A stretch of 64,000 nucleotides of DNA from sequence record MH560358; one strand, 5' to 3'. A program made the position numbers and the translations under genes. The stretch is from Escherichia virus KFS-EC. Positions 3,200 to 19,821 of this stretch are shown here, in pieces (positions within the stretch are counted from its first letter, which is position 1; the number at the start of each line of letters is the position of its first letter). A model generated the notes under the pieces. The model had not been told where the DNA came from. It saw only the letters and a list, made by a program, of their open reading frames with translations, and ran no database searches.

Positions 3200-3423
3200 T
3201 TCGGTCGAGTCTTTTCAAACTTATACATTCCGTAACAATCTCGAATCATCCACGTAACAAGAGCACCAGTCAACACAGACAATACACAGAAGAAGTAAAA
3301 CGGTCCGGTTGCATTATCAACATGAGCAAGCCAGGTAAAGAAAACACATGCTAAGAATGTAAAGAACATCATAAAGCACAAGAAAGCGAAATATTTTATA
3401 CTACTCATAGCGCCACCATACAA
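3184..3423 (-). CDS. small membrane protein (79 aa)
   Basis: Hydrophobic segments. Confidence 0.45.
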   Translation of the reverse strand: MYGGAMSSIKYFAFLCFMMFFTFLACVFFTWLAHVDNATGPFYFFCVLSVLTGALVTWMIRDCYGMYKFEKTRPKWGKR

Positions 3424-3511
3424 CAGATCATAAGAAAACCCAACGCAATAAGAATTGCATCAAATTTAGTGAACTCAGGTCCACCTATCAAAATCATTCG
3501 TTCTATTTCGT

Positions 3512-3709
3512 TCATAGCGTACAAAGCCATTTAAAAGCACCACATAAAGCGAGCAGAATACTAGGTATAAACGAGACCATAACAAGTTTGCAAAAATCAT
3601 CTAAGGTAACACCGGAATAGCTACCTACTGTAACAACACCGATCATCAGACACAGAAAGAAAACAAATGCAATCATAAACAAAGTATTGCTAAACAGTTT
3701 AGTGATCAT
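3512..3709 (-). CDS. small membrane protein
   Basis: Hydrophobic ORF. Start placed at internal ATG 3709 (GGGGTG SD; 11-nt overlap with upstream gene) rather than track start 3790. Confidence 0.35.
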   Translation of the reverse strand: MITKLFSNTLFMIAFVFFLCLMIGVVTVGSYSGVTLDDFCKLVMVSFIPSILLALCGAFKWLCTL

Positions 3710-3902
3710 TAGACACCCCACGACGATCAATTTCAAAAACTTTTTTATCATCAACGAAGCATGTAACAACTGCCTCGTTGACTTCCGCAAATTGTTGTGT
3801 TACCCACTTAAGGTCAGAGCGAAACAATGTTCTATTAATAACAAATGTTTTACCGCTCTTATCCTTACCCATAAATTTTGCTTTAACCATATCCAATTCC
3901 AT
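3699..3902 (-). CDS. hypothetical protein (67 aa)
   Basis: ORF with AAGGTGA SD upstream of ATG at 3902. Confidence 0.45.
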   Translation of the reverse strand: MELDMVKAKFMGKDKSGKTFVINRTLFRSDLKWVTQQFAEVNEAVVTCFVDDKKVFEIDRRGVSNDH

Positions 3903-3909
3903 ATTATCA

Positions 3910-4068
3910 CCTTATTTGCTAATCGCTAAACCCAATCCGAAGAGAGCACCCGATGCTACAGTATACCCGAAAGTTTCAAATGCAGTAAAGATATCTAAGC
4001 CACCAGCTAACAGAGTTGCAGTAAACAGAGTACCAGCTACGAACATAAAAGTTTTACCGATAAATTTC
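3910..4068 (-). CDS. small membrane protein (52 aa, MKFIGKTFMFVAGTLF...)
   Basis: ORF below the 60-aa track cutoff, found by hand; its ATG abuts a PeSL-like cassette (GGAGAATCAAAATG). Confidence 0.45.
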
Positions 4069-4140
4069 ATTTTGATTCTCCTTTCGTTTGTTTGTGGGGG
4101 GTATCTTACTACCCCCGTTTCATGTTGTCAACTATTTTTA
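4069..4140 (-). promoter_or_regulatory. PeSL-like early promoter cassette
   Basis: TTGACA (4126-4131 minus), GGGGGTAGTAAGATACCCCCC inverted repeat, leader CAAACAAACGAAAGGAGAATCAAAATG. Confidence 0.55.
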
Positions 4141-4515
4141 AGAATATTTTACTTCGTCTACAATGTCTTTCATGACATTGATTTCCATTCCGGTCAGAAC
4201 ACGTTGGAACATGTGCTGCACATACGCTTTCAGGTATTCATTTGATGGCTTACTATCGAAAGTCTTTTTAGTGTAGTAGTCATCACCGAAAGCTACTGTA
4301 ATTACATTTTCGTCGTCGTTCCAAGCGATATAAGCAAATTTGCCGTTATCCCAGAAGCGAGCACTAATTGCTACTTTTGTTGAATCGAATCCTACTTCGC
4401 TGTGAGATTCAAGAACTACTTGCGTACCAGTTTCTTTATGAATGTAGTAGCGGGATACTAAGTCAAAGTTACGGGTGTAGTGACATTCGAATTTATCTTT
4501 AAACATCATCATCAT
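4138..4515 (-). CDS. hypothetical protein (125 aa)
   Basis: ORF preceded by PeSL-like cassette. Confidence 0.55.
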   Translation of the reverse strand: MMMMFKDKFECHYTRNFDLVSRYYIHKETGTQVVLESHSEVGFDSTKVAISARFWDNGKFAYIAWNDDENVITVAFGDDYYTKKTFDSKPSNEYLKAYVQHMFQRVLTGMEINVMKDIVDEVKYS

Positions 4516-4588
4516 TTTGATTCTCCTAAGTGTGTTTCGTTTCTATGTGTGCATTATGCTATAGTCGTTTATGGTTGTCAACACCTAA
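4516..4588 (-). promoter_or_regulatory. PeSL-like early promoter cassette
   Basis: TTGACA (4576-4581 minus), conserved leader and SD. Confidence 0.6.
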
Positions 4589-4592
4589 AAAC

Positions 4593-4618
4593 AAAAAACC
4601 CCGAAAAATTTTCGGGGT
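4593..4618 (-). terminator. intrinsic terminator (minus-strand orientation)
   Basis: CCCCGAAAA/TTTTCGGGG hairpin with T-run on minus strand, just downstream of the 57B-like gene. Confidence 0.6.
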
Positions 4619-4624
4619 ATAAAA

Positions 4625-5095
4625 TTACAGTTTGGTCGTCCACTCCAGGTCTAGATCTTCGACATACTCATGAGATCGGACAATCTCTAAATCGAACTCT
4701 AGGTCAGTGCCAAATTTACGCGCACCAACATCATAAGAAAGCGTGATATGCGGTACATATTCAGGATAATCCCACGTCGCACCTAAAGCAGTGCCGATAT
4801 CGTGTCTGAATTGCATGTAGTCGCTTTCAAATGCCAGCACAAGCGCATTAGTACCGGATTGAGTTTCAAACACTTTCAGATGGCATAGAGAGCCTAAGAA
4901 CTTCTCCCCTTCTTCTGGGATAAACGGAACATAGACACGAGAATATAAGATAGTGCTATGCAGTTTATCACGAGGAACGGCATTAGGCAGATCGTAGAAC
5001 TCCTGCAATTTTTCAATGCGGTCTAGTGTATCCTCAGTGAATTTAACCGCCGCATATGTACCTTTAACGGATTCTCTAAACGGGGTCATAATCAA
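4625..5095 (-). CDS. 57B: 2H-phosphoesterase-family protein, T4 57B-like
   Basis: Two H-x-T/S-x motifs (LHSTIL and PHITLS), the hallmark of 2H phosphoesterases; position immediately downstream of the 57A-like gene. Confidence 0.55.
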   Translation of the reverse strand: MIMTPFRESVKGTYAAVKFTEDTLDRIEKLQEFYDLPNAVPRDKLHSTILYSRVYVPFIPEEGEKFLGSLCHLKVFETQSGTNALVLAFESDYMQFRHDIGTALGATWDYPEYVPHITLSYDVGARKFGTDLEFDLEIVRSHEYVEDLDLEWTTKL

Positions 5096-5358
5096 GCCTC
5101 CGTGATCAGTTCTACTTCCTCTTCTGCGTCTTCCGCTGCTTCGTCTTTAGGGAGAAGTGCTTTCACTTCTTCGACAATAGCATCAAGGGAAACAGTCCCG
5201 TTTTCGTCTGGCTGAATACCCAGAATGCGTACCAGTTCCATCAATACACGCTCACGATCTTTCAGTTGGCCTTCTAAGAATGCGGCCTTTTCTTGAGTGT
5301 CAAACAGACGTACTTTCAGGACATTAATCATTTGTTCATGCTGATTGGACATATTCAC
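5092..5358 (-). CDS. 57A: tail-fibre assembly chaperone gp57A-like
   Basis: 88-aa coiled-coil-like protein with acidic C-terminus, adjacent to gene 1; resembles T4 gp57A as recalled. Confidence 0.55.
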   Translation of the reverse strand: MNMSNQHEQMINVLKVRLFDTQEKAAFLEGQLKDRERVLMELVRILGIQPDENGTVSLDAIVEEVKALLPKDEAAEDAEEEVELITEA

Positions 5359-8443: not shown

Positions 8444-8451
8444 TATAAATA
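8444..8451 (+). promoter_or_regulatory. T4-type late promoter (TATAAATA)
   Basis: Exact TATAAATA about 33 nt upstream of the gp53 ATG. Confidence 0.6.
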
Positions 8452-10857: not shown

Positions 10858-11427
10858 ATGGTTGAAATTCTTCCGATGAGTTCAAAATTGGAGGATATCA
10901 GCGAGCGAGAAATCTTTGAGGTGGTGTTCTCTTATAAAGCAACGCCACCGGATGCAAATACCACATACACGATTAAAGAGTTTAAGATCAGCGAGTATCG
11001 CCCTAATAAGGGCGTTACCGTTGAAGAAACTAAAATATCTGGTGAGTATAGGGATAGTTTTTCGCTTGGCGCGGATTCTCTTAAATATATAACGAAAGAT
11101 CGAATTAAAAAATCTGCCGGAAGTTTTGATGATTTACCAGATCCAACTACCGCAGATCTATATTATTTTAACGCTCCTACACGTCTACAGGAGGTTTATA
11201 CTTATAAAGTAACCCTAACCTATATCCAATCTGTTTCAGAGTCTTCTGGTGGTTCTGGTGAAGGAAATAGTGGTGGTTCCAATAGCCGAGAGGGTGCTGG
11301 TGAAACTAATCCGCCTCCGGTAGTAACCGAGCACACAATAGAGAAAGTTTATACTCAAACCGTTTTTGGAAATTGGGATGTGTGGAGTAAACAGTTAAGA
11401 GATTATGTTAGAAGAAGTGAGGGATAA
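10858..11427 (+). CDS. 5.1: gp5.1-like protein
   Basis: ORF immediately downstream of gp5; positional assignment only. Confidence 0.4.
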   Translation: MVEILPMSSKLEDISEREIFEVVFSYKATPPDANTTYTIKEFKISEYRPNKGVTVEETKISGEYRDSFSLGADSLKYITKDRIKKSAGSFDDLPDPTTADLYYFNAPTRLQEVYTYKVTLTYIQSVSESSGGSGEGNSGGSNSREGAGETNPPPVVTEHTIEKVYTQTVFGNWDVWSKQLRDYVRRSEG

Positions 11428-11428
11428 T

Positions 11429-11968
11429 ATGATTGAAGTAATTCATTACACCAAAGAAGATGAAATTTTATATAATAGACTACATGAACTATTTTATGAA
11501 GTTGACGGAAAGGTTTATAGAAGGTTCTCTCGTGGACGTTCTAAAGCCGGAAGTCTAGTTGGTGGATTGAAGATAAATCCATGTGGATATAGATATTGGA
11601 GACTTGCTGTTGATGGTAAAGAGTTTCAGAGGTCTCATGTTGTTTATCATATGCATCACGGACACACTCCGAGAAAACCACTACAAATAGATCATATTAA
11701 CACAAACTCCCTTGACGACCGAGTTAGCAATTTAAGACCAGCAACCGTTACTCAACAAATGTACAACCAAAATAAACAATCCGATTGCACATCTTCATAT
11801 ATTGGTGTTAATTGGAATAAAAATTCCAAAAAGTGGGAAGCTAGAATTAGAGCCAATGGAAAACGAATCCGTTTAGGTCTATTTGATAATGAAATTGACG
11901 CTGCGATTGCCTATAACACCGCTGCATTATCTAGAGATTCAAAAGTTAACAAATTAAACGATGTATGA
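11429..11968 (+). CDS. HNH homing endonuclease with AP2 DNA-binding domain
   Basis: HNH motif ([10 protein letters not shown]...[17 protein letters not shown]) followed by AP2-like [43 protein letters not shown]; start set at ATG 11429 with GTGAGGG SD. Confidence 0.8.
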
Positions 11969-11981
11969 AGATGGGGTTTTG

Positions 11982-12275
11982 ATGGCTGGTTTATCATATG
12001 ACAAAGCAAAAACTACTGGACATGGTAATTACGGTCCGACAATAATTAATGCAACTCAATCTAAGGTATTTGTTGAGGGTATCCCTGTATTAGTAGAAGG
12101 AGACCCAATTACACCACATACAAAAACAACAAAGCCTTATGATACACACGGGGGAACTACGGTCGCCAGTACCCCGAAAGTATTTGTTACCGGAAAGAAA
12201 GCAATTCAAATGGCAGATCGTATTAGCTGTGGCGATACCGTCGCTATGGCATCACCGAAGGTATTCATAAAATGA
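11982..12275 (+). CDS. 5.4: PAAR-repeat baseplate spike tip protein gp5.4
   Basis: About 97 aa, Gly/Thr-rich PAAR-like sequence directly upstream of gp6; start at internal ATG 11982 (GATGGGG SD). Confidence 0.6.
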
Positions 12276-19813: not shown

Positions 19814-19821
19814 TATAAATA
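19814..19821 (+). promoter_or_regulatory. T4-type late promoter (TATAAATA)
   Basis: Exact TATAAATA about 28 nt upstream of the gp9 ATG. Confidence 0.6.

Follow-up and report, generated by a model that had tools for sequence, protein, structure and literature searches.

A predicted HNH-AP2 homing endonuclease gene inserted at the gene 5.1/5.4 junction in the baseplate operon of a Krischvirus

The DNA examined here, referred to below as the window, is a stretch of 64,000 nucleotides of Escherichia virus KFS-EC (sequence record MH560358), a Krischvirus (RB49-like, Straboviridae), for which the closest record is vB_EcoM_G5211 with 96.8% identity and colinearity over 25 kb. Among its baseplate genes, an ORF assigned to an HNH-AP2 endonuclease extends over positions 11429..11968 on the + strand and encodes 179 aa followed by a TGA stop. 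The frame is free of interruption over the whole of its 179 codons, and the assignment draws on the ORF list, the sequence itself, Pfam and PHROG matches and an AlphaFold2 model. Upstream lies gp5.1 (10858..11427, + strand, 189 aa), which is assigned to phrog_1168 and aligns with RB49 gene 5.1, and downstream lies the PAAR spike-tip protein gp5.4 (11982..12275, + strand, 97 aa), recognised by Pfam PAAR_motif at 2.4e-10 and starting where it is annotated to start in RB49, MIZ4 and G5211. Both neighbours had been named correctly in an earlier, sequence-only reading of the window.

The gp5.1 stop codon TAA occupies positions 11425-11427 and is separated by a single nucleotide from the endonuclease ATG at 11429, in agreement with the earlier description of a start codon that abuts the gp5.1 stop. 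A Shine-Dalgarno motif, GAGG (11419-11422, + strand), is evident in the sequence with a 6-nt spacer to this ATG and lies inside a rewritten tail of gp5.1 (described below); an RBS is annotated at the equivalent position in the Ec_Makalu_003 record. A longer form beginning at the in-frame ATG 11405 (187 aa) was considered and discarded, as it lacks a comparable Shine-Dalgarno motif and as the alignment with a 41%-identical homologue from phage Whisky starts at residue 4 of the 179-aa protein. With an intact ORF, the GAGG motif and no support for the 11405 start, the coordinates and the length originally given for the gene were retained.

The sequence-only reading had proposed that the protein combines an HNH nuclease motif with an AP2-type DNA-binding domain. 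The first part was borne out directly by Pfam HNH_3 (PF13392), which matches aa 70-111 with 37.1 bits against a cut-off of 24.8, while the second needs some qualification because the match to Pfam AP2 (PF00847) at aa 123-168 reaches 32.7 bits and so stays 0.6 bits below the cut-off of 33.3, although it is backed by profile and fold comparisons. The best PHROG match was phrog_99, annotated as HNH endonuclease, at 2.6e-45. When the single sequence was compared with the PDB using phmmer, the AP2 domain of Arabidopsis WRI1 was found at 5.6e-6 and I-HmuI was not found, whereas a profile built from an alignment of 21 homologues recovered both, the WRI1 AP2 domain at 1e-16 and I-HmuI (1U3E) at 1.4e-12 over profile positions 28-122.

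The same alignment was supplied to AlphaFold2 and yielded a model with a mean pLDDT of 93.3 and a pTM of 0.82. The model begins with a helix and a beta-sheet, continues with a beta-beta-alpha unit (E86-89, E102-105, H107-112) for which pLDDT lies above 90, and ends with a three-stranded sheet and a helix, the AP2 part, in which strands E127-130, E135-142 and E145-152 are followed by helix H155-169. Foldseek against the PDB ranked I-HmuI first with a probability of 1.00 over an alignment of only 89 columns, followed by the AP2 domains of TEM1, WRI1 and AtERF1; for the GCC-box domain of AtERF1 the TM score, normalised to the target, was 0.77 with an rmsd of 1.9 A over 61 columns. From the profile matches, the model and the Foldseek comparison, therefore, the protein is predicted to join an I-HmuI-like DNA-binding sheet and an HNH nuclease to a C-terminal AP2 domain that binds DNA. 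The HNH (His-Me finger) domain maps to 11636..11761 on the + strand (aa 70-111; Pfam, family alignment, I-HmuI profile and model) and the AP2-type domain, with its three strands and helix, to 11795..11932 on the + strand (aa 123-168; Pfam, profile and Foldseek).

Alignment to I-HmuI also located the residues of the HNH motif, which are encoded on the + strand at 11690-11695 (D88-H89), 11729-11731 (N101) and 11756-11758 (Gln110). The family alignment shows no variation at D88, H89, N101, L102 and R103, and in the HMMER alignment D74-H75, N87 and N96 of I-HmuI stand opposite D88-H89, N101 and position 110, respectively. In the I-HmuI structure paper, Asn96 together with Asp74 is said to hold the catalytic metal, His75 reportedly being the general base. 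The window protein and each of the four other phage copies have Gln at residue 110, and the metal-ligand Asn or His expected there is absent. Among 139 HNH motifs extracted from 170 retrieved proteins, the equivalent position carries Asn in 134 and Gln in five, and the Asn three residues further on (Asn113) is kept in all five Gln motifs. Since Gln occurs in only five of the 139 related motifs, activity could be altered or lost; judged from these alignments, Gln110 appears to be a rare but recurrent variant and the predicted nuclease activity is plausible, if not assured.

Alignments of occupied and empty alleles defined the inserted cassette as 11409..11972 on the + strand, 564 bp that replace the 5 bp ACATA of the empty allele. 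Empty alleles read GATTATGT ACATA GGGGTGTTTAATGGCTGG, while in occupied alleles GATTATGT is followed by a cassette that runs from TAGAAGAAGTGAGGGATAAT through the ATG...TGA of the ORF to AGAT, after which the GGGG of the flank resumes. The cassette consequently comprises a new gp5.1 tail and stop, a Shine-Dalgarno motif, the endonuclease ORF and 4 nt. Its boundaries are identical in all occupied alleles, and megablast matches of two cassette-less phages end exactly at 11408. The GC content of the cassette is 35.3%, compared with 40.1-41.3% for genes 5, 5.1, 5.4 and 6 and 40.6% for the window.

The left edge of the insert falls within gp5.1, five codons ahead of the native stop, such that the last codons of gp5.1, 11409-11427, are derived from the cassette and the C-terminus is changed from ...DYVHRGV* to ...DYVRRSEG*. 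At the other end, the ribosome-binding site of gp5.4, GGGG, is kept by the cassette 5 nt ahead of ATG 11982. The earlier statement that the gene is inserted between gp5.1 and gp5.4 is accordingly right with respect to the neighbours but not with respect to the exact gap, because the insert supplies the preceding gene with its tail and stop.

Occupancy of the junction was surveyed with a 2.4-kb query around the ORF that matched 58 phage records, of which 40 were listed. The whole query was present in five of the 58 (MIZ4, MIZ5, G5211, G37-3 and Ec_Makalu_003), with 98.9-99.4% identity of the ORF protein, and at least 28 records (28 of the 40 listed) carry the empty allele, where the matched span is 1,840-1,843 bp instead of 2,400. 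In RB49 the empty junction has nothing between the two genes, the 5.1 stop overlapping the 5.4 start (TAATG). The carriers are a minority among phages that are otherwise 96-98% identical and all are occupied at a single exact site, so that the presence/absence polymorphism that the sequence-only reading had proposed to look for does exist at this locus; with an HNH_3 match and a gene found in five of 58 records rather than universally, neither observation that might have spoken against that reading was made. Outside the five carrier records, the best tblastn identity among 50,697 phage records was 42%. A scan of IMG/VR with gp5.1 produced three loci, all of them empty alleles, and the more distant empty relative L007 was used as an outgroup.

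None of the 14 alleles examined has a disrupted ORF, and the five phage alleles together show 14 polymorphic sites within the ORF, 10 synonymous and 4 non-synonymous. In the G37-3 record (locus L009, 3275-5177) the annotation divides gene 6 into two overlapping CDS (3275-4924 and 4887-5177), which suggests a frameshift or a sequencing error.

Seven records, representing the six phages GEC-3S, W115, G2494, Skers, JEP8 and Whisky, carry a different HNH gene of 246 aa at the junction, and we refer to it as cassette B and to that of the window as cassette A. The B protein, BN201_0137 in GEC-3S, is 30% identical to the A protein, matches HNH_3 and contains two weak AP2-like repeats, and its cassette, like A, uses the 5.1/5.4 junction and has to its right the same diverged patch of gp5.4 that is described below for the window. 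It differs from A in being inserted 18 bp further right, after gp5.4 codon 3, leaving the gp5.1 tail native, and in carrying an upstream spacer of its own with a hairpin and a near-consensus late promoter. In GEC-3S (locus L013, 2426-2491), as in the same stretch of W115, G2494 and Whisky, insertion of the B cassette behind ATGGCTGG of gp5.4 leaves a short remnant frame, followed by a GC hairpin (GGCGGG...CCCGCC), the near-consensus late promoter CATAAATA and its own Shine-Dalgarno motif; the right end of the cassette regenerates the gp5.4 start and, therefore, about 18 bp are repeated on both sides.

Whisky carries, in addition, a third HNH-AP2 gene between gp5.4 and gp6 (locus L014, 3530-4084) that encodes 184 aa, 41% identical to the window protein, and because this gene is present together with the 246-aa B gene the PAAR gene of Whisky is flanked by two endonuclease genes. 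In T4 (locus L024, 4697-5119) the equivalent slot, after 5.1 and before 5.3/5.4, is taken by segC, a GIY-YIG gene, and therefore unrelated nuclease families use the 5.1 junction repeatedly across the Straboviridae.

With regard to expression, a single T4-type late promoter motif precedes the endonuclease on the + strand, TATAAATA at 8444..8451, directly before gene 53, and the next one on that strand occurs at 19814. Across the whole window TATAAATA was found 10 times against 5.9 expected, nine of the 10 matches being on the + strand. A promoter belonging to the cassette was sought and sigma-70-like matches were at or below shuffle expectation, the nearest + strand TATAAATA being that at 8444; likewise, no terminator-like site was found within the cassette, where matches were at or below shuffle expectation, and one weak 5-pair terminator-like site occurs in gp5.1 at 11061-11075. 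An RNA hairpin over the endonuclease start codon was marginal (z = -1.95, with 6 of 200 shuffles equally good) and was given no weight. Because the single upstream + strand TATAAATA is at 8444 and neither sigma-70-like nor terminator-like matches exceed shuffle expectation, the cassette looks promoter-less, as does T4 segC. The endonuclease would then be read in the late message extending from 53 over 5 and 5.1 to 6, with the promoter before gene 53 as its presumed source, and its translation would be coupled to that of gp5.1. A tblastn search revealed no paralogue of the gene elsewhere in the 64-kb window.

A look-up of the exact protein identified further contigs. Six of these were retrieved together with their 1.5-kb flanks; they and the window represent six distinct backgrounds. 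Across these backgrounds the cassette shows no differences at 564 sites, whereas the flanks differ at 23-83 of 2,903 sites (0.8-2.9%; Fisher p 1e-6 to 0.017), in a set that was chosen by exact protein identity, a choice that removes non-synonymous differences by construction and leaves synonymous ones free to occur. When compared with G5211, G37-3, MIZ4 and Makalu_003, the cassette of the window differs at 9-14 of 564 sites (1.6-2.5%) and is about as diverged as the flanks. The identical cassettes in six backgrounds, set against these differences from four others, therefore imply that the cassette exists in two or more lineages and that one of them has recently spread.

Immediately to the right of the insert, alignments revealed a diverged patch at 11973..12045 on the + strand, 73 bp that include the Shine-Dalgarno motif and the first 21 codons of gp5.4, which appear recoded. 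Relative to every empty allele, and likewise to the A alleles of the four other phages, the patch shows differences at 19 of 73 positions (26%), as against 0-1 of 73 relative to B alleles. Within the 21 codons of gp5.4 there are 12 synonymous codon changes together with P18G and V21I, the background level of divergence being 1-3%. Megablast with a 78-bp stretch at the patch, run against the whole phage collection, had the seven B records as its only matches. None of the eight empty alleles fetched has the patch, which is present, whole or in part, in 10 of 14 A alleles, namely the window, the six exact-protein contigs and three further contigs; the possibility that the combination of cassette A with a B-type patch is unique to the window was discarded, since the nine further contigs show the same arrangement. 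Its right end varies: beyond 12008 SRR13740806 carries the common haplotype, three SRR2235xxxx contigs show a mosaic, and the patch is missing altogether from MIZ4-type alleles. The outgroup L007 shares Gly18 with the patch and differs at many other sites. These alignments fit a patch that was imported from a more divergent lineage, L007 not being the donor.

For gp5.4, a start at 11961 was rejected in favour of ATG 11982, which gives a protein of 97 aa matching RB49 and T4. In alleles with the diverged patch (window 11961-12275; loci L025, L026, L028-L030, L032 and L033) the junction reads TTTTGATGG, and an in-frame ATG within the 3' end of the endonuclease gene there leads gene callers to a PAAR protein of 104 aa.

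A second, dimorphic patch lies in gp5.1 at 11387..11398 on the + strand, 10 bp to the left of the insert, where the window has AGTAAACAGTTA and encodes WSKQL rather than WAQQL; it differs from the alternative form, GCGCAGCAACTA, at 7 positions in 12 bp (SK versus AQ). The AGTAAACAGTTA form is present in 14/14 A, 3/4 B and 3/8 empty alleles, and the GC-richer form occurs in the outgroup L007. ECD7 is a phage whose empty junction carries the AGTAAACAGTTA form. We considered whether the left patch is specific to occupied alleles and rejected this in view of its presence in empty ones, the A alleles moreover sharing ancestry; it might form part of the nuclease recognition site.

Taken together, the alignments show cassettes A and B as alternative occupants within shared imported flanks. 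The flank patterns are also compatible with co-conversion tracts of variable length around a homing site; as a counterpoint to homing, they could also result from ordinary recombination of diverged phages in which no nuclease takes part.

On balance we consider that the gene is probably a free-standing HNH-AP2 homing endonuclease gene (HEG) in the late baseplate operon of a Krischvirus and that it is predicted to home into the empty junction. As far as can be judged from sequence comparisons, the endonuclease is most likely active, or was so recently. Mobility, and the marker exclusion of neighbouring baseplate genes that the sequence-only reading had also envisaged, are properties that we infer on account of the low GC content of the cassette, its identity in diverged backgrounds and the variable length of the flank tracts.

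By analogy with I-HmuI and with T4 SegC, SegF, SegG and MobE (PMC2988022), the following course of events may be envisaged. During a mixed infection the protein would bind the uninterrupted 5.1/5.4 junction of a cassette-less phage by means of its AP2 domain and N-terminal sheet and would nick or cut at or near that junction. Repair from the cassette-bearing genome would then copy the cassette and a variable extent of the gp5.1 and gp5.4 flanks, amounting to localized marker exclusion. The carrier genome would itself be protected because the insertion splits the junction, and the window may be further protected by the adjacent diverged gp5.4 patch, which is otherwise tied to the competing B endonuclease of the same slot.

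The alternative that survives best is an inactive or decaying HEG, an element that once invaded the junction, lost catalysis through the change from Asn to Gln and is now moved by ordinary homologous recombination only. Such a history would account for Gln110, at the position of I-HmuI Asn96, in all copies and for its rarity among relatives (5 of 139), and it accords with a cassette that between some phage pairs is as diverged as its flanks and that is carried by a minority of phages. We nevertheless judge it unlikely, given that the ORF has remained full-length in 14/14 alleles with a synonymous excess of 10:4 and that the cassette is identical in six diverged backgrounds; the same Gln, moreover, recurs in four other protein clusters where the rest of the motif is intact, which suggests a tolerated variant.

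Domestication is a still less probable explanation, and we give it little credence. Here the product would be a sequence-specific DNA-binding protein or nuclease that serves the phage rather than itself, for instance by acting as a late regulator, by competing with co-infecting phages or by defending against satellites. Such a role would suit the purifying selection seen in the ORF, its place in a late structural operon with translational coupling, and the co-option of AP2 and HEG DNA-binding domains elsewhere (PMC10448857), but it would not suit the sporadic distribution of the gene, most close relatives, RB49 included, being viable without it, and the low GC content of the insert and the presence of other nuclease cassettes, unrelated in sequence, in the same slot also argue for a selfish element. 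That the cassette with its diverged gp5.4 patch is an assembly artefact or chimera of one sequence, as the otherwise exclusive association of the patch with the B endonuclease in the curated phage collection might suggest, is refuted by the same arrangement, with small variations, in nine independent contigs (eight sequencing runs and one NCBI assembly).

Returning to the preferred reading of a homing endonuclease gene, we tentatively suggest an extension of it that we think is somewhat less likely to be right than wrong. The 5.1/5.4 junction may be a contested landing pad on which cassettes A and B displace each other, the 73-bp patch, with its divergence at wobble positions, being an allele that confers immunity to cleavage and that short conversion tracts pass from one cassette to the other. 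The window would then be a doubly protected recombinant, and the graded end-points of the patch in metagenomic contigs would be fossil tracts left by encounters of the two cassettes.

Both HNH-AP2 homing endonucleases and the marker exclusion of T4-like phages belong to textbook knowledge, and there is no conceptual novelty in the gene as such, since its class is known and an annotation exists for the identical protein. NCBI lists the exact 179-aa protein as YP_010097159.1 / AXF53173.1, 'HNH endonuclease [Escherichia virus KFS-EC]', its UniRef entry is named AP2/ERF domain-containing protein, and the copies of MIZ4, G5211 and Makalu_003 appear in GenBank as '(putative) HNH endonuclease'. The family is large, with 110,728 cluster representatives matching at E values up to 1e-3. 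The window gene adds an uncharacterised representative to a well-known kind, and its existing annotation is correct. A literature search found no paper on the 5.1/5.4 nuclease locus in Krischvirus.

What the analysis adds is modest: a gp5.1 tail that is rewritten by the insert, the variant Gln110, and a contested hot spot that has a shared diverged gp5.4 patch. The locus marks a recombination hot spot beside the spike-tip (PAAR) and lysozyme genes of a genus that is used in therapy collections, and nuclease-driven conversion at the junction, if it occurs, would spread local baseplate alleles between co-infecting phages. With three occupancy states, a shared diverged flank and a range of tract end-points, it is also a small natural model in which the competition of homing endonucleases with one another can be studied along with target-site immunity.

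Magnani et al. 2004 delineated the HNH-AP2 endonucleases as a mobile-element class, according to the passages of PMC1524935 and PMC10448857 in which that work is cited. Nolan et al. 2006 (PMC1524935) reported HNH-AP2 genes from RB49 and RB43, and related AP2-associated HNH genes were described at recombination boundaries in other phages by Barth et al. 2023 (PMC10448857). The window protein resembles the HNH-AP2 HEGs of phages and cyanobacteria, among them ORF040c of RB49, a phage of the same genus, in combining an N-terminal HNH_3 domain with a C-terminal AP2 domain and in being encoded by a small, free-standing gene (about 160-250 aa) that occurs sporadically in phage genomes. It differs in having Gln rather than Asn at the third motif position, and the other HNH-AP2 genes of Krischvirus lie at other loci and are only about 40% identical to it.

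Two further systems provide useful comparisons. I-HmuI (1U3E), the HNH nicking endonuclease of Bacillus phage SPO1, aligns with the window protein over the N-terminal beta-sheet and HNH module, with the D-H and N(LR) residues conserved, but it is intron-encoded, has helical and HTH C-terminal DNA-binding modules instead of an AP2 domain and retains Asn96 where the window protein has Gln. T4 SegC is the closest parallel in position, as its gene occupies the slot directly after 5.1 and before 5.4 in a promoter-less cassette set tight against 5.1. Edgell et al. described segC as an active, promoter-less GIY-YIG endonuclease gene inserted at 5.1/5.3 whose product cuts that junction, and the cutting is reported for phages without segC (PMC2988022). 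Unlike the window protein, SegC is of the GIY-YIG family, with no sequence relationship between the two, and its gene overlaps 5.1 by 20 bp and leaves the tail of that gene as it was, whereas cassette A rewrites it.
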